Origin: a virus
Lineage: Duplodnaviria; Caudoviricetes
Reading direction: 5' to 3' (one strand)
Virus record (IMG/VR): IMGVR_UViG_3300036770_006790
Location: 1-61,513 of that record
Length of the DNA: 61,513 nt
How positions within the stretch are numbered: position 1 is the first letter of the stretch; every line of letters begins with the position of its first letter. A model generated the notes under the pieces. The model was not told where the DNA came from. It was given only the letters and a program-made list of their open reading frames with translations, and did no database searches. This document shows positions 28,942-61,217 of this stretch, piece by piece. The translations under genes were made by a program, and so were the position numbers.

Positions 28942-28942
28942 T

Positions 28943-32789: not shown

Positions 32790-32790
32790 A

Positions 32791-35162: not shown

Positions 35163-35469
35163 TGAAAAAATCGTTAGCGTTTATTCCTTTATCATCAATA
35201 AAAAAATCAGCATTAAATTTAACTCCAGTCCTTAATTCATTAAATTTTAAATTATACGAAATGAGTTGTTTATATGTTTCTTCATACCAATTTTTTTTTG
35301 AAACAGAACCTCTTGCAGTTTCAATAATGATATAATGCCCATTTTCATATAATTCATTTACAATATTTATCCTATCTTCAAAAGGATGTGAATTTTTATA
35401 ATCCCAGTTTCCATCTGGTTTTTTCTTTGTGTCACACAAAGTGTTATCTAAATCGAATACATACCTCAT
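35146..35469 (-). CDS. Small HAD phosphatase (capsule-biosynthesis type)
   Basis: FDLDNTLC, TARG, K..ADFFIDDK. Confidence 0.82.
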   Translation of the reverse strand: MRYVFDLDNTLCDTKKKPDGNWDYKNSHPFEDRINIVNELYENGHYIIIETARGSVSKKNWYEETYKQLISYNLKFNELRTGVKFNADFFIDDKGINANDFFNGYNK

Positions 35470-36113: not shown

Positions 36114-36114
36114 A

Positions 36115-39162: not shown

Positions 39163-39164
39163 CC

Positions 39165-39716
39165 TTATTTGAAATAATAAAAAATTTCATCTGTAATTAT
39201 AAAATTATTAGTTGCTGAAATTAATTTTTCAATAAAATCAAAGTCTTCTCCATCTCTGTTATTATCAAATCTTATATTGTATTTGTTTTTGTAGCAAAAA
39301 GAAATACCTACATTACCATAAGATATAGTATTATTTCTTGGTATAATTAAACCTTTATCATTAACCATTCTCCAAATAACTAAATCATAAGAATTATATT
39401 TTTCGAATAAAGTTTCAACGTAATTTTCGTGAATTGTGTCATCATCATCTACAAAACCAACCCATTCTGTATCACAAATTTCCAATCCATAATTTCTTAC
39501 TAAACCAGACATGCCGTGATGAAGTTCATTTTTTTCTACACCAGTTTTTTTTATCTGTATTGTTTTTATTCTATCATCTTTAAACTTTTGACCTTTGACT
39601 CCATCGTAAATTATAATACAATTCCAATTAGGATTGCTCTGATTTATAATAGAATTAACAGTATCTTTTAATGTTTTTCTATTTAAAGATGGTATTATAA
39701 ATGTTATTTTATTCAT
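39165..39716 (-). CDS. Glycosyltransferase family 2
   Basis: Start at MNKITFIIPS; RNYGL, FVDDDD, GEDF. Confidence 0.8.
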   Translation of the reverse strand: MNKITFIIPSLNRKTLKDTVNSIINQSNPNWNCIIIYDGVKGQKFKDDRIKTIQIKKTGVEKNELHHGMSGLVRNYGLEICDTEWVGFVDDDDTIHENYVETLFEKYNSYDLVIWRMVNDKGLIIPRNNTISYGNVGISFCYKNKYNIRFDNNRDGEDFDFIEKLISATNNFIITDEIFYYFK

Positions 39717-41223
39717 AAAATCTAAAAACATTTTTTATTTTATCGAAATTAGAACGAACAAAAGACAATAATGTATTATAATCTTTTGTCATTTTATTTT
39801 GTTTTTCCTGATCCTCATTTCTTGTTTGACTTTCGTAGTGATACGCAACTAAACGACCATCATTGTAATTATTTAATCCCTTTACTATGCAGACATAATT
39901 TAATTCTAAGTCTTCAAAACAAGAAATATAATTTTCGTTAAATCCTCCACATTTATTAAAAGTTTTTAATCTAATCATCATTAAAGCCGCAGTGTTACCT
40001 GAAACATTTTTTATGTAAGGTAAATAATAATAATAAGTTGATAATCCATGATGTGTGACATAGAATTGGTTTTTTATTACTGAACTGGCGACACCATCAT
40101 GTTGAACCAAATTATTCTCATAATGTAATCTACACCCAACAGTTCCAACTTTGTTTTTCTTACAAAAAATATCTAGCATTCCACCAAGAACATCATTTAG
40201 TAATCTTATATCATTATTACAAAATAAAATAAATTTAAATCTATCTCCGATTATGTTATTTACAACATCATTATTTATTTTAGCAAAGTTGTAATAATCG
40301 TATTCTATAAAATGAATTTTTACTGTTTCTTTTTTTAACTCAATAAAATTTTTTATTTCATTTTTCTCTTTTTCATTTGATCCTGTATCCGCAATAAAAA
40401 TTTCATATATAGAGGCATCACAATTTTGTATAAAAGAATTTATACAATTAAACAACAAATTATTTTTACTTTTTGTCAAAATAATTACTGCTGTTAATCC
40501 AATTTTTTTTGATATTTTTGTTTTTATGTTTTCAAAATATATTGAATTCGGTTTTAAATCTAATGGTAAAATATCTTTGTATTTTTCAACAAAAAATTCT
40601 TTAGTTTTAAAAAATTCATCATTGGGTACCCCTATTGATTTATGAGTTATCTCAAAAGAACTAGTAACACCAATTTTAACACCACTAATATAGTTAGGTA
40701 GGCAAAAACCATGATCATAAAAATGAAATTTACCAAAAGATTCATCAAATCGATGTTTTATTTTATCCAAATTAAAAGATATAAATAAACCATCAATACT
40801 CACAACAGGAATAATAAAAGGTAATTTAGGTGAATATTTACTCAGCCATTTTTTATTTGATTCAGGGTTATGGTAAACTTGACCAACCATAGTAAAGTCT
40901 TTTTTTTCCCAAAAAACGCCAGAAGAAGGAAAATAAGTCGTACCCGCTTTACCTATGATACCAAAATCAGGATTTTTATTAAAATCATTTAAAAGCGATT
41001 TACCCCAATTTTTACTTAACTCAATATCATTATGGCAACAAACAATTATACTATTTTTAGCTAACTCTATCCCTTTATTATATAACTCAGATAAACCAAA
41101 ATCTCCATGGTTAATAAACTCTAAAATCTCAAAATCTTTAACACCTATAGTGTTTGATAAATGATTTTTAAATAATTTATTGTACTCGGAATCTTTGTGC
41201 GTTGAATAAATAATTGTTATCAT
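39709..41223 (-). CDS. Two-domain GT2-type glycosyltransferase
   Basis: N-domain YNKG..CCHND...DGLF...FHFYD; C-domain DTGS, NFAKINN, FCNND, GGFNE...EDLE. Confidence 0.82.
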   Translation of the reverse strand: MITIIYSTHKDSEYNKLFKNHLSNTIGVKDFEILEFINHGDFGLSELYNKGIELAKNSIIVCCHNDIELSKNWGKSLLNDFNKNPDFGIIGKAGTTYFPSSGVFWEKKDFTMVGQVYHNPESNKKWLSKYSPKLPFIIPVVSIDGLFISFNLDKIKHRFDESFGKFHFYDHGFCLPNYISGVKIGVTSSFEITHKSIGVPNDEFFKTKEFFVEKYKDILPLDLKPNSIYFENIKTKISKKIGLTAVIILTKSKNNLLFNCINSFIQNCDASIYEIFIADTGSNEKEKNEIKNFIELKKETVKIHFIEYDYYNFAKINNDVVNNIIGDRFKFILFCNNDIRLLNDVLGGMLDIFCKKNKVGTVGCRLHYENNLVQHDGVASSVIKNQFYVTHHGLSTYYYYLPYIKNVSGNTAALMMIRLKTFNKCGGFNENYISCFEDLELNYVCIVKGLNNYNDGRLVAYHYESQTRNEDQEKQNKMTKDYNTLLSFVRSNFDKIKNVFRFYE

Positions 41224-46260: not shown

Positions 46261-46279
46261 CTATTTATTCATAAATATC
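46261..46279. promoter_or_regulatory. Overlapping divergent putative late promoters (TATTTAT on both strands)
   Basis: CTATTTAT (+, 46261-46268) and ATAAATAT (46271-46278, i.e. ATATTTAT on -) lie between the divergent starts 46239 and 46292. Confidence 0.55.
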
Positions 46280-46291: not shown

Positions 46292-49200
46292 ATGCCTTAT
46301 CAAAATATAAATGAATATAATTTTAGTAAGATATTCCTTATTCCCGTCAATGAAATAACGGATATATCTTTGGCATCAGATGAAAAAGATTTTGATTCGG
46401 AAATTGTGTTTTCGCAAAATATTATTGGTTATAATGATGGAAATGTATTACCCATAAATATTGAAATATTTGATAGCGGAACTACAACTGAAAATATTTT
46501 AATATCTAAAAATTATCTAAGACAAGCACTTCCATTTTCCTCCACAACTTTTTCTTTGTGTGACATTGGTTTAACAGGTATTGACAATGGTCTAACAGAT
46601 GGTATGAGTGGTTATACCATAGAAATAAATAATGGCATATATTCTAACGAAAACGACAAATTTGACCGTTACAAATATGACCAAAGAATGAAATTCCACA
46701 AGATAAACGGTAATACAACTCCTCAAAACAGAATATTTGATGATGACAGTTACACTTACAACGCAGTAATTGATACTGATGATGATCTTGTTGGTAATTA
46801 TTTGCGCCTTGATGGTGGATTTTATCAAGGGTTTTATAAGTTATTCGGATACGACTACGAAGTTTTCCCGGAAAGAGTTAATTTAGGTTGGACGGCAGAA
46901 TTTCTAATTAGACACAGGTTTAATAGTCCATCTAACATAGGTTTGAATGCAAGATATAGCGGAAATAGCGGCATATTTTTTTACATCGGGGCAAGGGCAG
47001 AAAACAAATTTTATCACAGCGCAACTGGTTATCCGCTATCTTATTCATCTTACACAAGAGTGACAAGCGGGCTTACTTCAATTGAAACTTGTGAATGTAG
47101 TGGGGCGACAAATAGTGAAACTTGTGATTACATATATCCAAACAAAGAAAGCACAAACCCTTATTATAACGAAAAAAACCCGTTATATGATTCCGCATCA
47201 AATGGTTTTGCCGTCAGATTAAGCGGAAATACTGGAAACCCAAAATTATGTGTAAGAACTTATAGTTTATCAGGAAATTGCGATTCAGAAAAAACCTTTC
47301 AAACTGGCGTAACATTTAATGAATGGTGTTCAACAAATGGGATATTCGAAGAATTCAAAAACACAAGTTATATAGATATCGAAAAATGGGCACAAATAGA
47401 TATTGTCTTTAAAAGATATAGATATTTCGATGATTGTGACTTGGGTTATTATGGTGGGTTAGATAAAATAAAAGAAACAAAATTTTTAGATAGTTTAGAT
47501 GGAAATAGTACTGCTTTAATTGAACCGCCTATAACACAAAATCAAGAAGAAGCAGAAAAAATAGAAATTTATAATTTAAATAATAAATGGTTAACTGATG
47601 TTGAAAATAGGCTTGGGGAATTAAAAATATTCATTAATGGGAAACCGTTAATGATTATTGAAAATTTTGAAGAAGTAATACCCAGACCTTTAAATGCAAA
47701 TAAAAACATTCAGCTATCGGTACCATACAATATATCAATAGGCGGTGGAACACAAGGTTTACATGATAACCTTGTTTTTTTAAATTCCGAATCAGGTTCA
47801 ACATATCAACAAGACCCTGAGTTGCTACCAACAAAAATATTAGAAAAAACACCTTTTTCTGGATTAAGTACAAATATATTTCTTGAAGAATATTTTGGTG
47901 GTTCTTTTATTGGCGATTTGTCTGCTTTTAGAATGTACACCAAACCCCTTAATTCAGCCCAAATAAGGCACAATTTCAAAATATTAAAAGATAAATATGC
48001 TTTAGCAAATTTATTTGTTCCAGAATGTATTCCACCAGAAGTTCTTAGTTGTAGGTTTAATGTTGATATTGATATACTTAGTTGTGATTTTGGTATGGAT
48101 GTCGTCGAAATACCACCAACCCCAACGCCTACTCCCACGCAAACAGTCACACCTACATTTACACCCACAAACACAGCAACCCAAACACCAACGCCTACTC
48201 TTACACCTACTAACACGGAAACATCAACGCCTACTCCCACACCTACGAATACCTTAACACCTACGAACACAGTTACACCTACGAACACAATTACGCCTAC
48301 AAATACGGTAACCCCTACAAATACAGTAACGCCAACCAATACGGTAACACCCACGAATACAGTAACACCTACGAATACACTCACACCCACGAATACACTC
48401 ACACCCACGAATACGGTAACTCCGACTAACACAGTAACGCCAACCAATACGGTAACACCCACGAATACAGTAACACCTACGAACACTGTCACTCCCACGA
48501 ATACGGCTACACCCACGAATACGGTAACACCTACAAATACAATAACACCCACGAATACAGTTACACCTACGGTTACCCAAACATTGACACCCACTAACAC
48601 GGAAACTTCAACGCCTACGCCCACGCCTACGAATACCGTAACGCCTACTAACACTGTCACCCCTACGAACACTGTTACTCCTACAAATACAGTAACGCCT
48701 ACAAATACGGTAACACCTACGGCTACCCAAACATTAACACCTACTGTTACTGAAACACCAGCACAAACACCAACAAATACGGTGACACCAACAAATACGG
48801 TTACACCATCTGGTAGTTTACCATTAACGCCCACGCCTACAAATACTAATACCTCAACTATCACAACAACGCCAACACAAACACCTACAAATAGTGTAAC
48901 GCCAACAAATACAATAACACCAACCAATACAGTTACGCCTACAAACACATCAACACCAACAAGCACACTTACACCAACTAATACTATATCACCATCCGTA
49001 ACTATTACTCCAACCATAACAACAACACCTACGAATACAGTAACACCAACTAATACAATCACACCTACAAACACAACAACACCTACAAACACAATAACAT
49101 CAAGCCAAACACCTACGGTTACGATTAGCCCAACTAATACCATAACACCTACTCAAACACCAACGAATACGGTTACACCTACCATTACAGTTACGCCAAC

Positions 49201-49315
49201 AAATACGACAACACCCACAAATACAGTTACCCCAACTCAGATAACCTTCCATGTGTTGCTCGAAAATGGAGATGTTTTAAATACTGAGGATGATTTCATA
49301 ATTGATTACAGTTAA
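46292..49315 (+). CDS. Putative virion protein: LamG/ConA-like domain + mucin-like Thr/Pro repeat region
   Basis: LKIFING...[20 protein letters not shown] resembles a LamG end, followed by ~370 aa of TPTNTV repeats. Confidence 0.7.
48115..49238 (+). repeat. Degenerate 18-bp tandem repeat encoding TPTNT(V/I/L)
   Basis: Dozens of ACNCCNACNAAYACNGTN units with variable third positions. Confidence 0.92.
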
Positions 49316-49369
49316 AATAATATACCAACATATTTATTTAAAAAAATAATCGTCAGATAATTAATTAAT

Positions 49370-49726
49370 ATGGCCAATAAAAAAATATCGGAATTACCTT
49401 TAAGTTTTTCAGGTTCTCCGAACTCATTAATGGTGATTGTGAATTATGACCAAGAAATTACTGGCATAACAAATTCAATATATTTTTCGGCGTTAACTGC
49501 TCAATTTTCTATTGGTGATATTGAAATTTCTGGCACTACTGATGGAAGCAACAGAAACTTTACATTATCTAAGAACATACAAAACCCTAACAAAACATTA
49601 TTTTATTTTAATGGTCAGTTGCAAAAATATGGCGATAATTATTCAATAACAGGAACTACACTTGAAATATTGCCGAATACCTTTGCGCCAGAAAGTACGG
49701 ATTTTTTGAGGCTTTTAAGTTTTTAA
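49370..49726 (+). CDS. Putative small virion/tail-associated protein
   Basis: MANKKISELP start and DGSNRNFTL...FNGQLQ....YSI repeat type seen in phage structural proteins. Confidence 0.55.
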   Translation: MANKKISELPLSFSGSPNSLMVIVNYDQEITGITNSIYFSALTAQFSIGDIEISGTTDGSNRNFTLSKNIQNPNKTLFYFNGQLQKYGDNYSITGTTLEILPNTFAPESTDFLRLLSF

Positions 49727-49732
49727 TTTAAG

Positions 49733-50926
49733 ATGATTTTAAGTTTTACGCTAAAAAACATATACAGTGGTTCAAAATATATAGCTGGACCATTTAACAT
49801 ATCTGGAACAACAGATACTGGTGAAGTTTATGAATTAGCACAATCAATATCAAAAAGTCAATTACTTTCTGGATACATTTTAGAAACACAATATAATATA
49901 ACAGGCGGGACAATTGAAAGCACTGGTTTTTGCAAAAATTCAATTAGCTGGGCACCTATTTTGCCCACCCCAACTGTGACACCTACTCAAACTTCTACAC
50001 CAACAAATACACCTACTCAAACCCCTACGACTACCGCCACGCCAACAAACACACCTAGTCAAACACCCACAAATACTGTAACTCCAACGAATACAGTAAC
50101 TCCTACGAATACAATAACATCCACAAATACGGTAACTCCTACGAATACATTAACACCCACAAATACCGTAACCCCAACGAATACGGTAACACCTACAAAT
50201 ACGGTAACACCTACAAATACGGTAACACCTACAAATACGGTAACACCTACAAATACGATAACACCTACAAACACTGTGTCCCCAACTCAAACATTAACAA
50301 ATACGGCAACACCAACAAATACAATAACACCAACGCAAACACAAACCAATACGGTAACACCTACAAATACGGTAACACCTACGAATACGGTAACACCGAC
50401 CAACACTATAACACCCACGAACACCTTAACACCGACAAATACGGTAACGCCTACGAATACATTAACACCCACAAATACAGTGACCCCAACTCAAACACTC
50501 ACAAATACGATAACCCCAACAAATACTGTGACATCAACCCAAACACCCACAAATACGATAACGCCGACGAATACGATAACGCCGACAAATACGGTAACAC
50601 CTACAAACACAATAACTTCAACTCAAACTCCTACGAATACAATAACACCAACACAAACACCGACTAATACTTTAACACCCACAAATACAGTAACACCCAC
50701 GAATACAGTAACACCGACAAACACTATAACTTCAACTCAAACTCCTACGAATACAATAACACCAACACAAACGCCGACTAATACTTTAACACCCACAAAT
50801 ACAGTAACACCCACAAATACAGTAACACCCACGAATACCTTAACGCCCACGAATACGATAACACCGACAAATACTCCAACGCAGACACCACCACCTGCTT
50901 GTGATTTAGAAGCAACTGATATTTAA
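49733..50926 (+). CDS. Mucin-like Thr/Pro repeat protein
   Basis: ~75 aa N-terminal domain followed by ~310 aa of [10 protein letters not shown] repeats. Confidence 0.75.
49965..50895 (+). repeat. Degenerate 18-bp tandem repeat with a 114-bp higher-order duplication
   Basis: Perfect ACGGTAACACCTACAAAT runs near 50182-50255; the block at 50613 recurs at 50727. Confidence 0.92.
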
Positions 50927-50936
50927 TTGAAATAGT

Positions 50937-51776
50937 ATGTCAACACAAATTACGTCCACTAATTATAATAATCAAAATTGCACGGTTACATTATATTCTG
51001 CGACGGGAAATACCATTCCATATACAAATGCGACACAAATTTCATTGGGAACACAAACAATACCATTTACATATTCATCAACAACGGTTAGCGACGAATA
51101 TGGAGTTTTTTCTTGTTTTTTTAGTGATTTTAACACTACATGCACTGTAAGTCAATTAACACCTCCAGATGGTGATGGGAATAGATATAAGACAATAAAA
51201 ATTGGGAATCAAATTTGGATGTCAGAGAATTTGAGAACACGTTTTTTTGCTGATGGTACGCCATTAGATAATCCGGGAAATACGGTGATAAGCGATGCGG
51301 TTTGGAGTGCTGCAAACGGTTCGACAACAAGATATTGGACCTTAGTTAACGGCAGCAGTCAAAACACTGGAATTTATGGTTTACTATATAATCAATACGC
51401 AGTTTTGGGAAGTACAAGCGGGGCATCATTAAACGTTACCTTATGCCCTTCGGGATGGAGGGTTCCGAGCGACGGGGAATTTTCAACATTAAATACATTT
51501 TTGGGTGGGTTTTCTTTATCTGCTGGCACCCAGATAAAATCAACCACTTTATGGTCTTCAAATGGAAATGGAAACAATACTTCAGGTTTTAATGGAGTGC
51601 CAGCCGGAAACCGCGAACCTTCAGGTGGAGAAGCCAATTTCGGTGCACGTTGTTGGTGGTGGTCTATTTCTAATGGAATCACTTGGGGTTTGGTCAATTC
51701 TACATTTTCGTTTAATCGTAATACGGGAGTTGATCAAAAAAACGGGTTTTCTGTACGTTGTCTAAAAAATTCTTAA
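50937..51776 (+). CDS. Fib_succ_major (FISUMP) domain protein
   Basis: DGDGNRYKTIKIGNQIWMSENL, YGLLYN, LCPSGWRVPS, SGFNGVPAG, WWWS, GFSVRCLK. Confidence 0.88.
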   Translation: MSTQITSTNYNNQNCTVTLYSATGNTIPYTNATQISLGTQTIPFTYSSTTVSDEYGVFSCFFSDFNTTCTVSQLTPPDGDGNRYKTIKIGNQIWMSENLRTRFFADGTPLDNPGNTVISDAVWSAANGSTTRYWTLVNGSSQNTGIYGLLYNQYAVLGSTSGASLNVTLCPSGWRVPSDGEFSTLNTFLGGFSLSAGTQIKSTTLWSSNGNGNNTSGFNGVPAGNREPSGGEANFGARCWWWSISNGITWGLVNSTFSFNRNTGVDQKNGFSVRCLKNS

Positions 51777-51948
51777 CTTGGATTTTAAAAAAATAAATTT
51801 ACACACTTAATAATTTTTTTTAAAATTGTATTAATTTTTAATTTATATATTGACATTTTTAAATAATTTCAAAACTAATATTTTAATAATTAAATTTCTT
51901 TACTTTTTCAAAAAATTTAATTAAGAAAATAAAAATAAATAAAACAAC

Positions 51949-52521
51949 ATGAATGAAATAGCAATAGGAAATCAAATATGGGCTTCAGAAAATCTATTAG
52001 CAACCCATTTCAGAAATGGCGACCCAATCCCATTTGTTGATAATGAAAATGATTGGGCAAATTTAAATACTCCAGCGTATTGTCATGGAATCAATTCAAA
52101 TTATTTTTTATATAATTTTTGGGTAATAGTTGACCCAAGAAACGTAGCCCCAGTTGGCTGGAGGGTTCCGACGGAATCGGACTGGAATGAGTTAATATCT
52201 TTTATTGGTGATAAAAATATTGCCGGACACAAGCTAAAGTCGGTTTCTGGCTGGGAGTTGACCATAACAAATCCAACAACAGGCGAACAAACAACAGAAT
52301 ATTTCAACGGCACAAACGAATTTGGTTTTAATGGGATAACCACAGGCTTTAAGCACATGAATGGTATTTTTATTCCAGATTTGTTATCCGCATATTTCAT
52401 TCCACAATCAATTGATGATGATTTGGCAAAATATATATTTCTATTTCATGGTAGTGAATTAGCAAAAGGTGGTATGTGGAAAAAAGATGGTTTCCCGATA
52501 AGATTGATTAAAGAAGGATAA
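51949..52521 (+). CDS. Fib_succ_major (FISUMP) domain protein
   Basis: IGNQIWASENL...FRNGDPI, LYN, APVGWRVPT..DW, GTNEFGF, GFPIRLIK. Confidence 0.85.
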   Translation: MNEIAIGNQIWASENLLATHFRNGDPIPFVDNENDWANLNTPAYCHGINSNYFLYNFWVIVDPRNVAPVGWRVPTESDWNELISFIGDKNIAGHKLKSVSGWELTITNPTTGEQTTEYFNGTNEFGFNGITTGFKHMNGIFIPDLLSAYFIPQSIDDDLAKYIFLFHGSELAKGGMWKKDGFPIRLIKEG

Positions 52522-52566
52522 TTACTATTTATTTTTATAAAAATCTTTGTAATATAAAAATAAAAA

Positions 52567-53826
52567 ATGGCAACAATATTTGTGCAAATTGCTTCTTATC
52601 GAGACCCGCAATTGGAATTTACCATCGAAAGTATGTTAACTAATGCAAAATACCCAAAAAACATACATCTTGCTATAGCGAGGCAATACCATGAAGATGA
52701 CAATTTCGATAACTTGACCAAATATCGAAAAGATAAAAGATTTAAAATATTAGATATCCCATATAACGAATCGGAGGGTGTTTGTTGGGCAAGAAACTTA
52801 ACTCAACAGCTTTATAATAATGAAGATTACACCCTGCAAATTGATTCACACATGCGTTTTGTAAAAGATTGGGATTTCATGTTAATCAACATGATAAAAG
52901 ATTTGCAATCTCAAGGTTATAAAAAACCTTTGCTAACTGCATATGTGAGTTCTTTTGACCCAGATAACGATCCAGCAGGAAGGGCAACAGAACCTTGGCA
53001 AATGGCTTTTGATAGGTTTATTCCAGAAGGAGCAATATTCACTTTGCCAGAAACAATTCCAAATTGGCAAAACGTAACATCTCCGGTGCCATCAAGATTT
53101 TATTCTGCACATTTTTGTTTTACACTTGGCATTTTCTCTAAAGAGGTTCAACACGACCCAAGATATTATTTTCATGGTGAGGAAATTTCCATTGCAGCAA
53201 GGGCATATACACATGGATATGATTTATTTCATCCTCATAAAATTGTTGTTTATCATGAATACACGAGGAAAGGAAGAACCAAACAATGGGATGATGATAA
53301 AATGTGGGTAGATAGAAATAATGCGTCCCATTTGTTGAATCGAAAATTGTTTGGGATGGATGGGGCATCTTATGACCCAGAAGAATTCGGAGATTATGGC
53401 TTCGGAAATCAAAGAACTTTGCGAGATTATGAAAAATATGCTGGTTTATTGTTTTCAAAAAGGGCTGTGCAGCAATATACATTGGATAAAAAATATCCAC
53501 CAAACCCATATAATTATGAATCAGAAGAGGAATGGGAGGCCGATTTTGCGAGAATCTTCAAACATTGCATTGATATAAATTATAGCTCCGTACCAGAAAA
53601 TGATTATGAGTTCTGGGTTGTCGCATTTCATGGAGAAAATGATGAAACAATATATAGAAAAGATGCGGATGTACATGAAATTGAAAGGATAATGAAAGAC
53701 CCAGATGGTTACGGAAAAGTTTGGAGAGAATTTCAAACATCTGTACAACCAAAATATTGGGTTGTGTGGCCTTATAGCACATCAAAAGGATGGTGCGAAA
53801 GATTAACAGGAGATTTACCATTATGA
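52567..53826 (+). CDS. GT60-like polypeptide N-acetylglucosaminyltransferase (Pfam GlcNAc / Gnt1-Gnt2-like)
   Basis: TIFVQIASYRDP, GVCWAR..Q.LY..EDY.LQIDSHMRF..WD, FYSAHF.F, FHGEE...AR.YTHGYD. Confidence 0.85.
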   Translation: MATIFVQIASYRDPQLEFTIESMLTNAKYPKNIHLAIARQYHEDDNFDNLTKYRKDKRFKILDIPYNESEGVCWARNLTQQLYNNEDYTLQIDSHMRFVKDWDFMLINMIKDLQSQGYKKPLLTAYVSSFDPDNDPAGRATEPWQMAFDRFIPEGAIFTLPETIPNWQNVTSPVPSRFYSAHFCFTLGIFSKEVQHDPRYYFHGEEISIAARAYTHGYDLFHPHKIVVYHEYTRKGRTKQWDDDKMWVDRNNASHLLNRKLFGMDGASYDPEEFGDYGFGNQRTLRDYEKYAGLLFSKRAVQQYTLDKKYPPNPYNYESEEEWEADFARIFKHCIDINYSSVPENDYEFWVVAFHGENDETIYRKDADVHEIERIMKDPDGYGKVWREFQTSVQPKYWVVWPYSTSKGWCERLTGDLPL

Positions 53827-54578
53827 GATTATGTTTTTTAAGTGAAGCGAATTATCCTAATTACGCTAAAAGAATTAAAGAGTTTAACATAAAAAAGTTT
53901 TTAGAACTTGAGTTAGACATGCCTTTTTATATTTCAACAAATGTTATTGATGAATTTAAAGAGTATGAGGGTCATCCATTAATTAAGGTTTTTGACATTA
54001 ATGAATTAAGAAAAAATAATTCTAATTCAATTAAAAATGAACCATTACCCGAAGACCCGACTGGACTTTACCCATCAAAATATCCTTGGAATTTAAGAAG
54101 ATTCATTTTAAGAAAGGCCGCAGAAGATGGATATGATGGATTATTTTTTTTAGAGTGTGATACAAGAATAAAAAATCACTTATCTAGTGAAGATATAAAA
54201 CGTATTTTACCAACAATGTATGAACCAAATACAGTTAAAACATCTTCTGCAAGATTTGTATATAAAAATAGACATCCGGGACAAGAATTATTTTACTATC
54301 ATCAAGACTATATCAATGATTTAAAATTAAAATTTGACGATAGTGAGTATGATACTTTAGATGGTACGAATCAATTATTTTTTGGAGAAACTACAGAGTC
54401 ATTAATAAAGTTTTTTGATAATTGGGATTACATCTGTGATTATGGTTACGAAAAATCCGAAGGTTATAAAACTGGGTATTTATCAAATTTATCTTTTGTG
54501 ATACCTATGTCAAATTTTAAATTACTACATGTTGATACCCCATTTGAGACTCATCATGTGTTTGAAGATAGATATTAA
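53823..54578 (+). CDS. Hypothetical protein, possible GT-A fold
   Basis: ATG at 53823 overlaps the upstream stop (ATGA); YPWNLRRF...FFLECD resembles a DxD-like site. Confidence 0.55.
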   Translation: MRLCFLSEANYPNYAKRIKEFNIKKFLELELDMPFYISTNVIDEFKEYEGHPLIKVFDINELRKNNSNSIKNEPLPEDPTGLYPSKYPWNLRRFILRKAAEDGYDGLFFLECDTRIKNHLSSEDIKRILPTMYEPNTVKTSSARFVYKNRHPGQELFYYHQDYINDLKLKFDDSEYDTLDGTNQLFFGETTESLIKFFDNWDYICDYGYEKSEGYKTGYLSNLSFVIPMSNFKLLHVDTPFETHHVFEDRY

Positions 54579-54579
54579 A

Positions 54580-55230
54580 ATGATAAAATTAAAAAAAATA
54601 CTAAAAGAAATAACTAACGATGAGAATTTTGTGTTTGTATCAATAGGTGCAAATGATGGGATTTTTGTTGATGAGATATTTTTATCGAGACTTTTAAATC
54701 CTAATTGGGATTGTTTGTTTGTTGAACCCGTTAAAGAAAGATTTGATTTATTGATTAAAAATTACAACGAACATTATCCAAATAATTCATTTAAGTATGA
54801 AAACTCTGCAATTCATGTAGAAAGAGGGGACGATTTTTTGATTACATCAAAAGACGATGATTCGAGGGGGTTATGTTCATTTTTTAGAATAGAAAGTGAA
54901 ATTTCCGATAAAATACCCGTAGTTAAAATAACTTTTGATGACTTAATTAAAAAACATAATATTAAAAAAATAAACTTTTTAAAGGTTGATTGTGAAGGGA
55001 TGGATTATGAAATAGTGATTCAATCTATTGAGAGTGGTTTGATACCTGATTTAATACTATTCGAAGATATAAGCCTACCAATTAACAATGAAAAAATAAG
55101 AGGATTGGATGAATTAATTGAATGTATAGAATCTAATAACGATTTAATTTTAATTTCTGATATCGCAGAAGCTCAATACGAGGAGGGTAATAAATTAATT
55201 ATAAAAAAAGATTTATTAAAATATGTTTAG
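54580..55230 (+). CDS. FkbM-family methyltransferase
   Basis: Start re-set to 54580; SIGANDG, W..LFVEP, INFLKVDCEGMD. Confidence 0.85.
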   Translation: MIKLKKILKEITNDENFVFVSIGANDGIFVDEIFLSRLLNPNWDCLFVEPVKERFDLLIKNYNEHYPNNSFKYENSAIHVERGDDFLITSKDDDSRGLCSFFRIESEISDKIPVVKITFDDLIKKHNIKKINFLKVDCEGMDYEIVIQSIESGLIPDLILFEDISLPINNEKIRGLDELIECIESNNDLILISDIAEAQYEEGNKLIIKKDLLKYV

Positions 55231-56739
55231 TATTTCAAATATCATACTTGCTGACAAGGGATTTTATATAAACCTAAACAGTTCAATTGAAAGAAAGGAA
55301 CAAGTTGAAGATTTGATTACAAAATACAATATAGAAGGTTTACATAGATTTGAAGCCCTTACTGACGAGTTTGTACAATTCTCATGTACTAAAAGTCATT
55401 TATCAATTTTTCAAACTGCGTTGAATGAGGATTTAGATTGTATTTTTGTTGCTGAGGATGATTTTATTATTCGTGATGATTTAGAATTTCCATATGGCGA
55501 AAACCATTTCACTTTTCATGAAATTATAGAAAAAATTTCAAAAGAATTGAAACACGTTGAATGGGATATTTTACAATTTGGTTGTAACCCAAAATCACAT
55601 TTAATACCTATAACAGAAAATTTAGCTAAAAATTATTCAAGTACCGGAGCTTGGGCATACCTCATTAAAAAAGATGCATACAAATACATTTTAGAAAATT
55701 CAAATTATGTAAGAGACTATATTGCCATAGATGATTATCTACCATTAATGAGTAAATTAGGATTTACTACTTTAACAACAATTCCAATGTCTATGGGACA
55801 TTCTGTTGGTTTTGTATCTACATTACAACCAAGAGGACCTGTTAATTATGATGCGTGGATTAGCGGTAATTATGATAAATTTCTTTATAGTCATTACAAA
55901 AACAAAAACTTTATGGATAGATTACTTGAAAGATATACAACAGTTGTTATAACAGGTCATTATTGTGAAGATTTTTTTTTTATTTAAAATATCTTTTACA
56001 TAGTTTACCCGATGAATTAAGACGATGTAGATTCATTATTCATTATGATGAAACATCTGATGATAATTTATTACAGAAACAAAGATTAACCGCATTTTTT
56101 AGAGACCATCATTCCGATTTGAATGTGACGTTATCATATAGTTTTGGGGGACTTATATCAAGTGTTCAAAACATTTTAGAAAAAGTAACGACTCCATATT
56201 ATATTTTTTTAGAACATGATTGGGTATTTTTGAAAAAAGATAATATCAATTTTGAAGGTTTAGTTGACTCATTTAATAAACATGATTTTATAAATGCTGT
56301 GTGGTTTTCTAAAGATGACAACAGAATGAGAGGATTTGATATTGCCGTGGATTCTGAAGGTGTTACAACCCCATTTGAAAAGGAGGAAAGAGTTAGTGAG
56401 ATTGATTTAGTAACGACATGTAGATGGTCAAATAATCCGGTTATGTTTAGAACGAGTAAAATGATAGAATGGTTTGATAAAGTTGTAAAAAATGACTTTA
56501 TTGGTGTTATTCATCAAGCTCAACAGAATATAGAGGAAAATATGATAGCATATTATAGAAAAGTGATAAGCGAAAATAAATGGAACGATATTAAAGATGA
56601 GTGGGGTACATTTTTGTATGGTAACATTGACGAGGGTCCATATGTTGGACATACTGACGCATCAAAAAGATATCAAGGGGGTTCTAAATCTGCCCCTGAA
56701 TATAATGGAGAAGAATATATTAAAAATAACCCAATTTAA
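55223..56739 (+). pseudogene. GT25 + GT-A bifunctional glycosyltransferase interrupted by a frameshift at a T10 tract
   Basis: GT25 motifs (YINL...ERK, SC..SHL, EDD) in 55223-55987. The -1 frame is open from 55981 through 56739 (LEHDW). One extra T at 55972-55981 gives a single 505 aa ORF. Confidence 0.72.
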
Positions 56740-56748
56740 AAAAAAGTA

Positions 56749-57501
56749 ATGGAAGTAAATTTTATAATAACATGTTATGATAAAGAAGCATATTGGCCAC
56801 ATTTAAAATCGGTCATTGAATCTTATAAAACAATAAAGCCACATATCGCACTTTGTTATAATGGTTTAGATGATACTTTTGAGTCTGATTTTAGATGTGA
56901 ATATAAACCAAATGGTGGTAGAGGAAATGATAGACACCCTCATGGTGTTGATTTCGCGGATGCCGATTATGAATTAACAATGGGAGGTTATCATTTTTTA
57001 AAATCAAATGGAGTTAATTTATGGGTTAAATTATCAATTGATAGTTGGTTATTAAATGAAAATAAATTAATACAAATATTAGAAAAATTAGAGCATGAGA
57101 ATTGTGCTTATGGAGGTAATATTTGGTATAAAAGAGTTAATATGTCAACAGACATATTCTTTGCAAATACAAAGAATAATAACATCTTCGAAGATATGAG
57201 TAAATATGGTGTTGAATTTTTTGACTATCTTTATTCAATACCTAACCCGGAGGGTTTTGAACATTTAATGTATTTTATCTCAAGACAATATAACCGATTA
57301 ATAATTACAGATAGAGAACCATTAAAGGCCGACTCAACAAGATGGGAGTGTCCTAAATTAGGTTGGGTGATGTCACATAATTTAGAATGGAACATAAAAT
57401 TCAAAGAAGATTATGTTAGTGATAATGATAATGTGACTTTTGATAAAATAATAGGTACTGGAGTACCGTATGATTTAAATTCGTCTAAAAGAGAAATATG
57501 A
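56749..57501 (+). CDS. Hypothetical protein in glycosylation cluster
   Basis: 250 aa ORF; KLSIDSW may be a degenerate GT-A motif. Confidence 0.6.
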   Translation: MEVNFIITCYDKEAYWPHLKSVIESYKTIKPHIALCYNGLDDTFESDFRCEYKPNGGRGNDRHPHGVDFADADYELTMGGYHFLKSNGVNLWVKLSIDSWLLNENKLIQILEKLEHENCAYGGNIWYKRVNMSTDIFFANTKNNNIFEDMSKYGVEFFDYLYSIPNPEGFEHLMYFISRQYNRLIITDREPLKADSTRWECPKLGWVMSHNLEWNIKFKEDYVSDNDNVTFDKIIGTGVPYDLNSSKREI

Positions 57502-59813
57502 TTGAAATGTTAAATAAAATACTAAATTTCCCAAATAAAAAAATAGACCCGTCAATTATAAATGACGAACAGATAAAAAATTTGGTTACATTTTTAATCA
57601 AATCAATTGAGGAAAATGTTGACGGAGATGTTGTGGAATTTGGTTGTTATGTTGGAGAGTCTTCAAAATATTTGATTAAGACTTTAATTGAAATGGGTTC
57701 GGAAAAAATATTATATGTTTACGATTCCTTTGAAGGATTACCCCCATTATCAAAATGGGAAGAAAACACGGGATGGAAAGCCGGTACATTAAAAAGCACT
57801 GAAGAAATTTTATCAAGTAATTTCATTCAAAACGATTTACCGATACCTATCATCCATAAAGATTGGTTTAAAGATGTGCCTGAAGAAAAGTTACCAGAAA
57901 AAATATCGTTTGCTTTTTTAGATGGTGATTTTTATGATTCTATTTACGACAGTTTAAATAAAATTTTTCATAGAGTTACGGATGGTGGTTATATTTGTTT
58001 CCATGATTATCAAAGAAACGATTTACCCGGAGTTAAAGCCGCAATAGAAGATTTTTTTAGAGATAATGATATAGAATTTAATGTTGTAGAGGTATGTAAT
58101 CAACTTGGTGTTTATAAAAAAAATGGTACTATTACAAAGCAAGAAAATTATATGAATAATATAACATTAGTAACTGGTCTTTGGAATTTAGGAAGAAATG
58201 GCTTATCAGAAGGATGGAGCAGAAGTTATGAACATTATCTAAATAAGTTTTCCGAGTTATTAAAAACCAAAAGCAACCTCATAATTTTCGGGGATGAAAA
58301 ACTAAAAGATTTTGTTTTCGAAAGGCGTTCAAAAGAAAATACCACATTTATTGTTAGAGATTTAGATTGGTTCAAAAACAATGATTATTACGATAAAATA
58401 CAATCTATACGAAATAAACCAGAGTGGTATAATCAAGTAGGGTGGCTTTCAGAATCCACACAAGCAAGATTGGAATTATATAACCCTTTGGTGATGAGCA
58501 AAATGTTTTTGCTCCATGATGCCAAGATATTAGATCCCTTTGATTCTGATTATATGTTCTGGATTGATGCGGGACTAACAAATACAGTTCACCCCGGTTA
58601 TTTCACACACGATAAAGTGTTAGATAAGTTGCCAGATTACACAAATAAATTTTCTTTTGTTTGTTTTCCTTATAAAACTGAAAGTGAAATACATGGATTT
58701 GAGATTAAAAAGTTAAATCAAATAGCTGGAAGTAGTGTTGAAAAAGTTGCAAGGGGTGGGTTTTTTGGAGGTCCAAAAAGCAAAATAGCCGAAGTCAATT
58801 CAATATATTATGGGTTGCTTTTATCCACCTTATCCGAAGGATATATGGGAACAGAAGAGTCCATATTTAGTATTATGTGTTACAAACATGCTAATATCAT
58901 AAATCATTTTGATATTGAAGCAAATGGCCTATTGAGTACATTTTTCGAGAACTTAAAGAACGATGCTTTACCAAAAAATGAAATTAAATTGTTACCTTCT
59001 GATATTTCAAAAGTTGGATTATACGTACTAACTTTTAATTCCCCAGAACAATTCAGGCAATTAATAAAGTCAATGCTGGATTATGATAGGGATTTTATTG
59101 ATAAACCACAAAAATTTTTATTGGATAATTCAACTGATTCATCCACAACACCCATATATGTCGAAATTTGCGAAGAATATGGATTTGAACACATCAAAGT
59201 AGATAATGTTGGAATATGTGGTGGAAGGCAATGGATTGCGGAACATTTTGAAACTTCAGATAATGATTATATGTTTTTTTTCGAGGATGATATGTTCTTT
59301 TACACAGGAAAAGAAACAGCTTGTAGAAATGGTTTTAACCGATATGCGAATAATTTATACCGAAAATCACTTGAAATAATACAAAAAAACAACTTTGACT
59401 TTTTAAAATTAAACTTCAGCGAATTTTACGGCGACAATAGCACACAATGGGCTTGGTATAATGTACCTCAAAATATTAGAGAAATATATTGGCCGGATAA
59501 TAATAAACTACCTGAACAAGGGCTTTCGCAAAATGCTCCGAAAGCAGAATACAAAAACATACACAATCATGATGGGTTACCTTATGTTACCGGAGAAATT
59601 TATTATTGCAATTGGCCGCAGGTGGTTAGCAAGAAGGGAAGTGAAAAAATGTTTTTGGATACAAAATGGGCTTATCCTTATGAACAGACTTGGATGAGCC
59701 ACATGTTTCAATTAACAAAGGATGGAAAATTAAACCCTGCTTTGTTGTTGCTTACACCAACAGAGCATAATCGATTTGATTTTTATGACGGTTCTTTGAG
59801 AAAAGAAAATTAA
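57498..59813 (+). CDS. Fusion: TylF/MycF-type O-methyltransferase + HtrL/YibB-like domain + GT-A domain
   Basis: GDVVEFGCYVG, YDSFEGLP, AFLDGDFYDS, HDY; then ITLVTGLWNLGR...FWIDAG...GGFFGG...GTEE; then LDNS...FFEDD. Confidence 0.8.
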   Translation: MIEMLNKILNFPNKKIDPSIINDEQIKNLVTFLIKSIEENVDGDVVEFGCYVGESSKYLIKTLIEMGSEKILYVYDSFEGLPPLSKWEENTGWKAGTLKSTEEILSSNFIQNDLPIPIIHKDWFKDVPEEKLPEKISFAFLDGDFYDSIYDSLNKIFHRVTDGGYICFHDYQRNDLPGVKAAIEDFFRDNDIEFNVVEVCNQLGVYKKNGTITKQENYMNNITLVTGLWNLGRNGLSEGWSRSYEHYLNKFSELLKTKSNLIIFGDEKLKDFVFERRSKENTTFIVRDLDWFKNNDYYDKIQSIRNKPEWYNQVGWLSESTQARLELYNPLVMSKMFLLHDAKILDPFDSDYMFWIDAGLTNTVHPGYFTHDKVLDKLPDYTNKFSFVCFPYKTESEIHGFEIKKLNQIAGSSVEKVARGGFFGGPKSKIAEVNSIYYGLLLSTLSEGYMGTEESIFSIMCYKHANIINHFDIEANGLLSTFFENLKNDALPKNEIKLLPSDISKVGLYVLTFNSPEQFRQLIKSMLDYDRDFIDKPQKFLLDNSTDSSTTPIYVEICEEYGFEHIKVDNVGICGGRQWIAEHFETSDNDYMFFFEDDMFFYTGKETACRNGFNRYANNLYRKSLEIIQKNNFDFLKLNFSEFYGDNSTQWAWYNVPQNIREIYWPDNNKLPEQGLSQNAPKAEYKNIHNHDGLPYVTGEIYYCNWPQVVSKKGSEKMFLDTKWAYPYEQTWMSHMFQLTKDGKLNPALLLLTPTEHNRFDFYDGSLRKEN

Positions 59814-59834
59814 ACATATTTATTTTTAAAATTC

Positions 59835-60308
59835 ATGTTTACCAAAAAAACATTGATTGGGATTTTAAAAGAGCAGATGGAGTTTGATAGTTGGAAACTT
59901 CCATCATTGGAACAATTAATGTTGGAATATAAGGTTGAACATACCTTAAAAGGTAATGACTTTTGGGATAGTGAATCTGATTTTTTGGAAGCCGTTGAAA
60001 ACGGAGAAATTATATCCATAAGCAAAGAAGAGGACCGAAACATATCATATCGTTCAAGAACCCGTTCAAAAGAGGATCTTCTTTCGTTGATTAGGAGTTA
60101 CCGTTCTTATCCCCAATATAGGAATGAAAAAACAATAGACAAAATCTACGAAGGTTTCATGGAAAATAAACCAATGGATTTGCCCATTGTGATAGAATTT
60201 GCGAATGGAAGGAGAAGAATATTTTCGGGTAACACCCGATTGGATATTGCTTTTCAACTTGGAATTACCCCAAAAGTTTTGTTGGTTCAAAGCGAAACAG
60301 AATATTGA
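59835..60308 (+). CDS. ParB/Srx-like domain protein with leader
   Basis: MDLPIVI...IFSGNTRL; N-terminal MFTKKTLIGILKEQ. Confidence 0.6.
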   Translation: MFTKKTLIGILKEQMEFDSWKLPSLEQLMLEYKVEHTLKGNDFWDSESDFLEAVENGEIISISKEEDRNISYRSRTRSKEDLLSLIRSYRSYPQYRNEKTIDKIYEGFMENKPMDLPIVIEFANGRRRIFSGNTRLDIAFQLGITPKVLLVQSETEY

Positions 60309-60309
60309 A

Positions 60310-60675
60310 ATGGAATTTTATATAAAGAAAAACGCCACATTGCCCTTATTGAAAATGTCCGTTGTGAAAGATGGAAGAAGCGATTTTAGGTCTTTTATGG
60401 AAGACCTTGAAAATTATGCTATGTATTTCACGATGTATGATGTCAAAAGTGGTATCGCAAAAATAATAAATGCCCCAGCGGATATTGTTTCTACCGAATC
60501 TGAAAATGAATATTACATATATTATCAATTCAAAGAACGAGACACCAAAACAACAGGTAGATACAAGGGTGAATTTCTTCTTAAAAATACACAGGGTGAT
60601 TTAATACTCCCATTGAGGGAGGAATTATATATAAATGTTTTGGATTCAAACCTAAAACAAACAAAATGTTGCTAA
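60310..60675 (+). CDS. Putative BppU-like baseplate/Ig-fold structural protein
   Basis: Start re-set to 60310 (MEFYIKKNATLP.L); YQF...DT..TGRYKGEF...LP....L.I.V. Confidence 0.55.
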   Translation: MEFYIKKNATLPLLKMSVVKDGRSDFRSFMEDLENYAMYFTMYDVKSGIAKIINAPADIVSTESENEYYIYYQFKERDTKTTGRYKGEFLLKNTQGDLILPLREELYINVLDSNLKQTKCC

Positions 60676-61217
60676 AAAAGGTATTCATCAAAATATTCTT
60701 TAACTGAATTTTTTAGTTCCACTAAATCAGAGAAATTAAATATAACATCCATTTCATAATCATCCAAAGCTAAATCTGAAACATGGGTTCCGTTATTACC
60801 AATGATATTGTTATTTCTTATTACTCTAATAATTTTTCCGCCCAAACCCTCCAATCTCTTTAGTTCATTTAAATATCTAACATCATGAACAATATAATTC
60901 TCTCCGATGTTAAAACTTGTAACCAAAGCATTGACCCATATATCTTGGTCAATAATGTTTCTTAGACCATCACCCACACCTTGCAATACTTGTCTTCTGG
61001 AAATGTTTAAATATGGAGCTTTGTCAAGTTTCCACTCTTGTGAATAGTCTTTTCCCGAAGGAATTTTTTCGTTAGTTATAATTTCATAAACATCTCTAAG
61101 TTTGTCTGCGAAGGCAACTATTTTAAAATCAAATTGTGGATACAATTCTTTTATTATTTTTGCGACTTCGCTCTTACCTGATCCTATTTTACCTGAAATA
61201 CCTATTATCTTTGACAT
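60672..61217 (-). CDS. Deoxynucleoside monophosphate kinase (T4 gp1-like)
   Basis: IIGISGKIGSGKS, AFADKL, RQVLQGVG, DIWV, DVRYLNE, HVSD. Confidence 0.88.
   Translation of the reverse strand: MSKIIGISGKIGSGKSEVAKIIKELYPQFDFKIVAFADKLRDVYEIITNEKIPSGKDYSQEWKLDKAPYLNISRRQVLQGVGDGLRNIIDQDIWVNALVTSFNIGENYIVHDVRYLNELKRLEGLGGKIIRVIRNNNIIGNNGTHVSDLALDDYEMDVIFNFSDLVELKNSVKEYFDEYLF

Follow-up and report, generated by a model that had tools for sequence, protein, structure and literature searches.

Repeat genes and a GT60-type enzyme in one gene island

The DNA analyzed here, a stretch of 61,513 nucleotides that makes up viral record IMGVR_UViG_3300036770_006790 (hereafter, the window), carries between positions 46292 and 60675 an unbroken row of plus-strand genes. 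This island begins with rep1, one of two genes for proteins bearing long threonine- and proline-rich (Thr/Pro) tracts, and ends with two small open reading frames (ORFs). Between them lie a gene for a glycosyltransferase (GT) of the GT60 type and several further candidate sugar enzymes, an arrangement that an earlier reading of the sequence alone (the original prediction) had taken for a candidate phage-encoded mucin-type O-glycosylation system. The features that bear most directly on this proposal are listed below, with lengths in amino acids (aa).

46292-49315, plus strand: rep1, 1007 aa, with a conserved core of ~609 aa, a 373-aa TPTNTV tract (48119-49237), and a 25-aa tail.
49370-49726, plus strand: 118-aa ORF between rep1 and rep2, with no Pfam or PHROG match; ATATTTATT at 49330-49338.
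49733-50926, plus strand: rep2, 397 aa; its TPTNTV/I tract of 305 aa (49967-50881) is preceded by an N-terminal domain of 78 aa and followed by a tail of 14 aa.
52567-53826, plus strand: PF11397/GT60-type GT-A glycosyltransferase, 419 aa, soluble, with the motif D93-S-H95 and an extra beta-rich C-terminal domain of ~120 aa; phrog_24687; the proposed initiating enzyme.
57498-59813, plus strand: 771-aa fusion of a TylF O-methyltransferase (residues ~19-206), an HtrL/YibB-like domain (221-469), and a GT2-like C-terminal domain (CTD; ~485-771).

Two ORFs with TPTNTV-type tracts, about half threonine, had been predicted, and this description is borne out by tracts of 373 and 305 residues. The rep1 tract (residues 610-982) is 49% Thr and 18% Pro and comprises 50 TPTxTx units, and the rep2 tract (residues 79-383) is 50% Thr and 16% Pro with 42 such units. 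A DNA pattern coding for TPTxTxTPT matches the window 70 times, always on the plus strand and always within rep1 or rep2, compared with an expectation of 0.00 from 100 shuffles. The 18-nt DNA units of the tracts share just 68-74% identity, the 41 TPTNTV units are encoded by 31 distinct DNA versions, and identity at third positions is 0.45 versus ~0.33 expected from codon usage. Conservation of the tracts therefore acts on the peptide and not on the DNA, and the array is not young. Two further elements of the original prediction hold: no hydrophobic N-terminus or transmembrane (TM) segment was seen in rep1 or rep2, in agreement with the proposed lack of an evident signal peptide, and the D-(S/T)-(A/I/L/V/M/T) sequon of Bacteroidota general O-glycosylation occurs 0 times in both tracts (two copies lie in the rep1 core). 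Only 25 and 14 residues remain after the tracts of rep1 and rep2, which are therefore the business ends of these proteins and do not lead on to another domain.

The N-terminal ~609 residues of rep1, its core, define a large protein family that comprises at least 2457 clusters and ranges in length from 576 to 1071 aa. In 91 of the 120 homologues listed, the core is immediately followed (from ~residue 590-650) by a T/P/S-rich tract 27-320 residues long; other family members have either no extension or globular C-terminal domains. A conserved core with a variable tip would be typical of phage fiber or decoration proteins. The core is possibly a ConA-like beta-sandwich: an Atlas feature search led to ConA/LamG-like viral clusters (Laminin_G_3), which is a lead and no proof, and the AlphaFold2 (AF2) model of the core is poor (predicted local distance difference test, pLDDT, 50.8). 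Foldseek matches of the core to lectin-like jelly-roll receptor-binding domains, at a template-modeling score of ~0.2, were too weak for use and were set aside.

The 419-aa enzyme matches PF11397, which we take to be CAZy family GT60, with 235.4 bits (cut-off, 21; E = 1.7e-69) over profile positions 94-349 plus 1-44. Its AF2 model is confident (pLDDT 90.6), and a Foldseek search with this model returned polypeptide N-acetylgalactosaminyltransferases (ppGalNAc-Ts) at all of ranks 1-28, led by ppGalNAc-T2, T4, and T1 (E = 5e-10 to 1e-8); against 1xhb_A, 240 columns align with a root-mean-square deviation of 4.0. TarS (29th), RmlT, and SpsA rank below the ppGalNAc-Ts, with the teichoic-acid GTs and SpsA ~40-fold or more behind. 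Residues D93 and H95 are invariant in all 18 aligned GT60-type sequences, and DxH is the defining metal-binding motif of the GT60 family. Beyond the Pfam match, residues ~296-419 form a beta-rich domain. The protein is without a TM segment, and a PDB sequence search gave no match for it or for its profile. Its nearest viral predicted structures carry the label "Glycosyltransferase, GlcNAc" and come from uncultured tailed phages, Megaviridae, and Pandoravirus; the family is already annotated automatically in viruses, and our literature searches found no study of it in phages. By profile, GT-A fold, and DxH motif, this protein is a GT60-type enzyme and is predicted to be a polypeptide transferase. 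In the available portion of PMC8724618, GT60 enzymes are described as polypeptide alpha-N-acetylglucosaminyltransferases related to GT27 that start mucin-type glycans on Ser/Thr-rich domains in Dictyostelium and Trypanosoma cruzi, which agrees with what the original prediction had stated of these enzymes and of their kinship with ppGalNAc-Ts. The same portion describes GT27 enzymes as having a C-terminal ricin-like domain that GT60 enzymes lack, and the Skp1 enzyme as a soluble, cytosolic GT60 relative after which a GT2-type enzyme acts.

A set of 25 related viral loci shows a common gene order, in which four minus-strand genes come first and are followed by the rep1 core, the GT60 gene, a variable set of GT and methyltransferase genes, HtrL-CTD, and a 126-aa ORF. 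A rep1-core gene lies 5′ of GT60 in 16 of these loci, immediately adjoining it in 12, and GT60 and HtrL-CTD are both present in 21. The conserved part of the 771-aa fusion comprises residues 220-771, the HtrL-like domain and a CTD for which the relation to GT2 is an Atlas lead. Full-length HtrL-CTD homologues (41-44% identity) are found in exactly those four deposited phages that have GT60, the Xanthomonas/Stenotrophomonas jumbo phages XacN1, Xoo-sp13, CM1, and RAS14, in which the two genes are 4-5 kb apart on the same strand. From bacterial and archaeal species genomes we obtained 274 stretches with a GT60 relative and kept 80 as loci, and an HtrL/CTD partner lies beside GT60 in 38 of the 80. 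GT60 and HtrL(-CTD) occupy one stop-free frame, an apparent fusion, in L288 (Vicingus) and in L313 and L315, two metagenome-assembled genomes (MAGs) of Vicinamibacterales. Because the pair is conserved, and at times fused, across such distances, the two proteins probably carry out successive steps of one pathway. T/P/S tracts, for their part, are carried by members of three or more distinct protein families encoded around the island.

Thr/Pro tracts near GT60 genes in phages and bacteria

The original prediction had proposed that co-occurrence of GT60 and repeat genes be tested across jumbo phages. We ran this comparison within the lineage of the window, on 15 large contigs (≥37 kb) among 80 loci, chosen solely by head-protein similarity. 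The Thr/Pro-tract (TP) pattern is present in 14 of the 15, a control pattern gave 0 matches, and GT60 is present in 6, including all four contigs longer than 100 kb. Both traits are near-universal, so that the proposed test, once run, did not discriminate. Arrays adjoin GT60 in contigs G058 and G062 and lie ~5 kb from it in G064. Across at least 120 stretches with the TP pattern, 47 of the listed 80 were searched for PF11397; it was found in 14, a fraction that is an upper bound and is confounded by shared ancestry and by the strand-blindness of the pattern.

Two other phages merit description in their own right. In a complete 321-kb relative (G008), dozens of TPTxTxTPT-pattern matches extend over ~22 kb (30000-52600), with 121 genome-wide, and this phage gives a large coding block to Thr/Pro-tract proteins. 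G051 is a complete 108-kb phage of another lineage, in which no relative of the head protein of the window was detected, and is judged from its sequence to be an independent case of the PF11397 GT family inside a structural module: a candidate GT gene (E = 9e-23) comes directly after the gene for a PASTA-domain protein of 735 aa, and the portal gene is ~1.1 kb away (L239:9304-12540). The PASTA-domain protein has (VG)n linkers and, by eye, a Hint-like C-terminus.

For the 80 bacterial loci, a T/P/S tract was counted if it spanned 40 residues or more and lay in an ORF of 100 aa or longer without overlap with the GT gene. Tract density is 12.2 residues/kb within 1 kb of GT60, compared with 0.4-4.5 in each later 1-kb bin. 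With a longest-ORF filter, which keeps a tract only if no longer ORF covers its position, the first bin holds 6.5 residues/kb versus a mean of 1.3, and eight loci contribute to it versus 0-4 (mean 2.0) later, an excess for which our own Poisson estimate is P ~0.001. Tracts are about five times denser beside GT60 in bacterial loci, and this is seen across several phyla; the eight first-bin loci come from Saprospiraceae, Lewinellaceae, Jiulongibacter, Arcticibacterium, Gemmatimonadaceae, Vicinamibacterales, and a Planctomycetaceae MAG.

The bacterial neighbor proteins begin with an N-terminal charged and hydrophobic signal that is followed by a PT/TP/PS tract of 50-250 residues. An RR-x-phi-phi-K-type motif, recognized by eye and by regular expression, precedes the tract in seven of nine neighbors; it would be consistent with cytoplasmic modification of the protein and its subsequent export by twin-arginine translocation (Tat), and Pfam called no Tat signal. 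In Saprospiraceae neighbors, a sorting domain of the type IX secretion system (T9SS) follows the tract; its score exceeds the Pfam cut-off in L246 but not in L252 or L253. A Chthoniobacter MAG has two GT60 paralogues, preceded by a LamG protein that contains PT tracts, an architecture that echoes rep1. The minimal cellular unit is that of L246, from a 7.3-Mb Saprospiraceae genome, and consists of a tract protein, GT60, and HtrL-CTD. Its enzymes are 68% (GT60), 65% (HtrL), and 61% (CTD) identical to those of the phage, and the locus is cellular, with no head-protein match and, by eye, housekeeping neighbors. In the cellular Bacteroidota loci L246 (6507-11095), L265 (2946-13148), L290, L252, and L253, the gene for the tract protein, a surface protein with a signal, is divergent from GT60, which is followed by (FkbM-)HtrL-CTD.

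The phage, its second sugar cluster, and neighboring genes

A T4-type major head protein is encoded in the window, together with a portal and a prohead protease. The nearest named relatives of the head protein are from Flavobacterium phages (40% identity), and close relatives are found on at least 598 viral contigs, which mark an abundant lineage. An identical copy of the GT60 protein is recorded on a 271.6-kb contig, and the window, a viral contig, is estimated to represent 21% of its genome. It is part of a T4-type jumbo phage of an abundant uncultured lineage. The identity of 61-68% between the enzymes of the phage and those of L246 points to a likely host group and to recent gene exchange; the host probably belongs to the Saprospiraceae or to a related group of Bacteroidota.

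The remaining genes of the island, and a second cluster of sugar genes on the opposite strand, are as follows.

46261-46269, plus strand: CTATTTATT upstream motif, with copies also at 49330-49338, 52525-52533, 59816-59824, and 2404-2412 (before the portal gene).
50937-51776, plus strand: FISUMP-domain protein 1, 279 aa (PF09603, E = 1.2e-31).
51949-52521, plus strand: FISUMP-domain protein 2, 190 aa (PF09603, E = 9e-24).
53790-54578, plus strand: 262-aa ORF with no family match.
54529-55230, plus strand: FkbM-family methyltransferase (PF05050, E = 1.3e-13).
55223-55987, plus strand: GT25-family glycosyltransferase (PF01755, E = 1.4e-9), with a 53% identical homologue in the L010 group.
56119-57501, plus strand: two ORFs of 206 and 250 aa with no significant family match.
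59835-60675, plus strand: orf157 and a 125-aa ORF (60298-60675) that closes the island; relatives of the latter at times carry a T/P tract (L013, L014).
27084-41223, minus strand: second sugar cluster, with five proteins whose GT domains score above the Pfam cut-off, four GT2-type and one GT1/4-type.

Pfam matches confirm the earlier family assignments (PF09603 for FISUMP, PF11397 for GT60, PF01755 for GT25, and PF05050, TylF, and HtrL_YibB for the methyltransferase and HtrL-like genes). The additional label "lectin-like" for the FISUMP proteins is putative, and FISUMP protein 1 gave no PDB sequence match. FISUMP protein 1 also has no homologue in the 25 related viral loci. PHROGs and NCBIfam gave no match for rep1, the 118-aa ORF, the FISUMP proteins, orf262, orf206, orf250, or orf157/125.

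In addition to its five GTs, the second cluster contains a sub-threshold GT11-like ORF, a UDP-glucose/GDP-mannose dehydrogenase, an epimerase/dehydratase, an aminotransferase, an adenylate-forming enzyme, a HAD phosphatase, and two methyltransferases, with a PhoH gene interspersed. The adenylate-forming enzyme (33828-35162) is PaaK/F390-synthetase-like, a hint of acylated sugars. Guanine-plus-cytosine content is 24-26% at 32-40 kb within this cluster versus 30-43% elsewhere in the window, and the cluster may be of foreign origin. It is plausible that the cluster feeds sugar donors or side chains into the same glycan as the island. Among the 40 ORFs of both sugar clusters, none has a convincing TM segment (two have single marginal hydrophobic stretches), and none codes for the membrane initiating transferase, flippase, polymerase, or transporter of a lipid-linked polysaccharide locus.

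The upstream motif, C/A-TATTTATT, had been put forward as a putative late motif of rep1 and the GT60 gene. It does lie 11-34 nt 5′ of four island genes (rep1, the 118-aa gene, GT60, and orf157), the portal gene likewise has a copy 5′ of it, which is suggestive, and 7 of the 14 copies fall within 45 nt before an ORF start in the sense orientation. The total of 14 in the window does not exceed chance (9.7 ± 3.0), however, and a general enrichment of the motif is therefore not seen.

Genes that vary among the relatives of the island suggest further chemistry. A carbamoyltransferase adjoins the GT60-like gene in XacN1 (L001, ORF333, by annotation), G045 (L240:6568-8001, by Pfam), and Jiulongibacter (L265:9238-10809, by eye), which suggests that some versions of the system carry carbamoylated sugars. 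Two PF13640 2-oxoglutarate-Fe(II) oxygenases are encoded within 4 kb of the GT60-like gene in G045 (L240:9773-11054), and one phage sub-lineage has, close to its tract proteins, a 209-aa ORF of no assigned class that shows an HxD...H...R pattern (L006:5596-6225, with copies in L004-L008 and L028). These proteins could be prolyl hydroxylases of a Skp1-like route or DNA-base oxygenases. A hydroxyproline route by way of the 209-aa ORF was rejected for the window, where it has no homologue, and the ORF belongs to no significant family.

Elsewhere in the window, the portal ORF (2428-5658, 1076 aa) matches portal profiles at residues 39-338 and 806-872 and an HNH endonuclease at residues 448-531, and looks like it carries an in-frame insertion, either intein-like or a homing element. 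A single ORF (12507-13889) joins endonuclease VII-like and Mom-like DNA-modification matches, and a gene for a 534-aa homing or HNH endonuclease (14356-15960) adjoins it on the opposite strand. A weak match to the sigma-70 family (E = 3.5e-4, under the cut-off; 26335-27084) could be a late sigma factor. In the related genome G041, a 329-aa ORF adjoining the ThyA gene resembles glutamine synthetase by eye (L244:2524-3513); glutamine synthetases and four core GT families have been described in "moraphages," freshwater phages of 200-307 kb with predicted Bacteroidota hosts (PMC12619734).

A proposed glycosylation system, its alternatives, and known counterparts

The gene content of the island, the fold and motif of its GT60-type enzyme, the conserved pairing of this enzyme with HtrL-CTD, and the adjacency of the tracts are observations. 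We propose, at a probability of roughly 0.55, that the island is a phage-encoded, cytoplasmic system for mucin-type protein O-glycosylation that acts on the tracts of rep1 and rep2. In this system the first sugar would be placed on the Thr/Pro tracts by the soluble GT60-type enzyme (52567-53826), and the HtrL-like protein with its GT2-like partner domain would lengthen it. Strain-specific outer sugars would then be made by the GT25, the FkbM and TylF methyltransferases, the unassigned ORFs, and possibly the 27-41 kb cluster. The products would be brush-like proteins, extended and covered with glycans, and the virion is the most likely place of their display. In this proposal we infer a protein acceptor, attachment at threonine (or hydroxyproline), the identity of the sugar, methyl capping, and virion display. 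This interpretation is favored because the GT60 model best matches ppGalNAc-Ts and its DxH motif is invariant; because tracts cluster by GT60 in bacteria and follow the core in 91 of 120 rep1-core homologues; because XacN1, which has the conserved pair, is reported to have virion glycoproteins; and because none of the 40 cluster ORFs has a convincing TM segment.

Several observations weigh against the proposal. Co-occurrence within the lineage, with the TP pattern in 14 of 15 contigs and GT60 in 6 of 15, proves nothing. Arrays are also found far from GT60 (~85 kb away in G004, and at several sites in G064 and G008), and GT60 has no tract nearby in 12 of the 25 viral loci and in most of the 80 bacterial loci. 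The DNA pattern is strand-blind, and its match in G051 corresponds to (VG)n linkers, the real gene there coding for the PASTA-domain, fiber-like protein. The longest-ORF filter dropped 18 of 44 bacterial tracts and kept 26. Cellular tract proteins have export signals that those of the phage lack. The rep1 core is without a homologue in deposited phages and without a PHROG match, its fold model is poor, and its location in the virion is a prediction. GT-A enzymes, moreover, can also act on DNA or teichoic acid, and a deoxynucleoside monophosphate (dNMP) kinase gene adjoins the island. The functional link between GT60 and Thr/Pro tracts that the original prediction had drawn consequently stands in part: it is supported by the bacterial enrichment, the conserved pair, and the XacN1 virion glycoproteins, and it is weakened by tracts in phages without the enzyme, such as G038, a complete genome that has arrays without PF11397.

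That last observation also speaks for the possibility that the tracts are unglycosylated spacers or adhesive segments, with the GT neighborhood reflecting shared late expression or chance, as does the presence of tracts at several positions distant from GT60. Many bacterial proteins have PT linkers, and in many relatives of the window the tracts link globular domains (for example, in L004). This explanation would not account for the roughly five-fold tract density beside GT60 across several bacterial phyla, a comparison with an internal control, nor for the existence of a three-gene cellular unit, and the tracts in the window, with 25 and 14 residues after them, are not linkers; we regard it as the least probable of the alternatives. 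It is unlikely, though the strongest competitor, that the enzymes instead remodel a host surface polysaccharide, lipopolysaccharide (LPS), or host glycoproteins, for example to block superinfection, and that the phage tracts are not their target. According to the Pfam descriptions, the GT25 and HtrL/YibB families take their names from LPS loci, the content of the island varies among close relatives as that of surface-antigen loci does, and the likely host group has its own GT60/HtrL-CTD/T9SS tract-protein locus, 61-68% identical, such that the phage enzymes could act on host tract proteins. GT clusters of jumbo phages have also been read as capsular-polysaccharide modification systems, in the accessible part of a jumbo-phage review (PMC7824862). 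Against such a role, there is no polyprenyl-phosphate transferase, flippase, polymerase, or ligase among the 40 ORFs, none of which has a convincing TM segment; the phage has abundant tract proteins of its own, conserved in family and position; and glycoproteins are reported from XacN1 virions (PMC5852040, in the part available).

A role in glycosylating the phage DNA, as base hypermodification against restriction, with the Thr/Pro proteins as unrelated neighbors, ranks between these two and is likewise improbable. Phage GT-A enzymes are known to glycosylate 5-hydroxymethylcytosine and are often encoded near DNA polymerase or replication genes (bioRxiv 10.1101/2023.12.21.572611, as excerpted). 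In keeping with this, the adjoining dNMP kinase gene (60672-61217) is joined in the window by a dUTPase and the Mom-like protein, a DNA polymerase gene follows the island in L004 and L006 and lies ~5 kb from the GT60 gene in XacN1, and the two PF13640 oxygenases near the GT60-like gene of G045 show sub-threshold Tet_JBP similarity. The DNA GTs described in the consulted portions of PMC13326640 and bioRxiv 10.1101/2023.12.21.572611, however, are GT-B enzymes (T4 beta-GT-like) or JGT/TarP-like GT-A enzymes (R...DDD...EDY/F) encoded beside ThyA/ThyS or TET/JBP (5mYOX) genes, and at least seven GT proteins with four methyltransferase domains exceed what any DNA glycan in those portions calls for. 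The GT60-type enzyme, by contrast, has DSH and best matches ppGalNAc-Ts. In three near-complete genomes of the lineage, the sole ThyA homologue is far from GT60 (~164-177 kb in G064 and G008, ~88 kb in G041), and it keeps the Cys and Asn that are presumably residues of a dUMP enzyme. The 48 ORFs of the window, which is 21% of the genome, gave no ThyA-type or 5mYOX Pfam match, and Tet_JBP was not found in a search that had no positive control. A 5-hydroxymethyluracil-based modification or genes in the other 79% of the genome could still serve such a role; it would explain neither the bacterial tract enrichment by GT60 nor the XacN1 glycoproteins.

Mucin-type O-glycosylation is regarded as eukaryotic, and, to our knowledge, giant viruses and a few mycobacteriophages are the only viruses established to encode the glycosylation of their virion proteins. 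A virus that glycosylates its own proteins and mucin-type O-glycosylation are thus each known, and the broader bacterial module is the most interesting lead. In a more tentative form that we consider possible but doubtful, GT60, HtrL-CTD, and a Thr/Pro-tract protein would constitute a widespread and hitherto undescribed prokaryotic and viral mucin-type O-glycosylation module, with representatives in jumbo phages and in no fewer than four phyla of bacteria, that acts in the cytoplasm and shares ancestry with eukaryotic GT60/GT27. Cells would then export the product (possibly by Tat and T9SS) and phages would mount it on virions, the phage copy (61-68% identical to that of Saprospiraceae) giving the virion a host-like glycan brush. 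If this is true, abundant environmental jumbo phages and many bacteria make mucin-like glycoproteins by means of an enzyme family shared with protists, which would provide a prokaryotic context for the origin of GT60/GT27 and account for much of the "auxiliary" GT gene complement of large phages. A glycan coat could affect adsorption, stability, grazing, and evasion of defenses, and the compact three-gene bacterial unit would be directly testable in culturable Jiulongibacter, Sphingobacterium, and Chitinophaga.

Among known systems, the serine-rich repeat glycoproteins of Gram-positive bacteria have very long repeats, rich in Ser and Thr, that are O-glycosylated in the cytoplasm and exported afterward, and further soluble GTs extend the glycans step by step; the initiators are the GT-B enzymes GtfA/GtfB, and export uses accessory Sec. 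Giant viruses (capsid glycans of PBCV-1, fibrils of Mimivirus) deploy many GTs, sugar-nucleotide enzymes, and sugar methyltransferases of their own in the cytoplasm on their own surface proteins. They resemble the present case in that PF11397-type GTs occur in Megaviridae and Pandoravirus, and differ in that their hosts are eukaryotic and other GT families have been characterized there; we know of no Thr/Pro-tract acceptors in them. PBCV-1 is also cited in the available part of the XacN1 paper (PMC5852040).

The cassette of mycobacteriophages Corndog and Che8 likewise combines soluble GTs with an O-methyltransferase, which is homologous to the TylF domain of the window (30% identity over ~130 aa). 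According to the accessible part of PMC11600133 (citing Freeman et al. 2023), the Corndog-type cassette modifies the phage's own capsid and tail-tube proteins. Its O-methyltransferase precedes three GTs, between the portal and capsid genes, whereas the island of the window is ~40 kb from the portal and head genes and the only putative structural protein that it adjoins is rep1. The GT families also differ, none in the cassette being GT60-type by annotation, and the reported acceptors there are the C-termini of capsid and tail-tube proteins rather than long repeat tracts; in the window, the acceptors would be dedicated mucin-like proteins.

The ORF334-ORF330 region of XacN1, with counterparts in Xoo-sp13, CM1, and RAS14, differs from the island in having a carbamoyltransferase between the genes of the pair and no long TPTNTV tracts in the 25 kb examined. 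It contains homologues of GT60 (44-46% identity) and HtrL-CTD (41-44%), and the giant neighbor ORF325 has short PT linkers. In the portion of PMC5852040 available, only two GTs are listed for XacN1, one of them ORF334, the GT60 homologue, and "at least two glycoproteins" are reported in its virions, with the proteins concerned left unnamed.

The eukaryotic GT60 enzymes, comprising the initiators of Dictyostelium and T. cruzi and the Skp1 enzyme Gnt1, differ from the enzyme of the window, which is of a viral and bacterial type, has an extra C-terminal domain of ~120 aa, is accompanied by no prolyl hydroxylase in the window, and has a predicted activity. The likeness lies in the PF11397 match, the GT27-like GT-A model, and the DxH motif. 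The enzyme of the window is, moreover, soluble like Gnt1; candidate acceptors rich in Ser, Thr, and Pro are encoded next to it; and a GT2-like second enzyme follows, as in the Skp1 pathway outlined in the available portion of PMC8724618.

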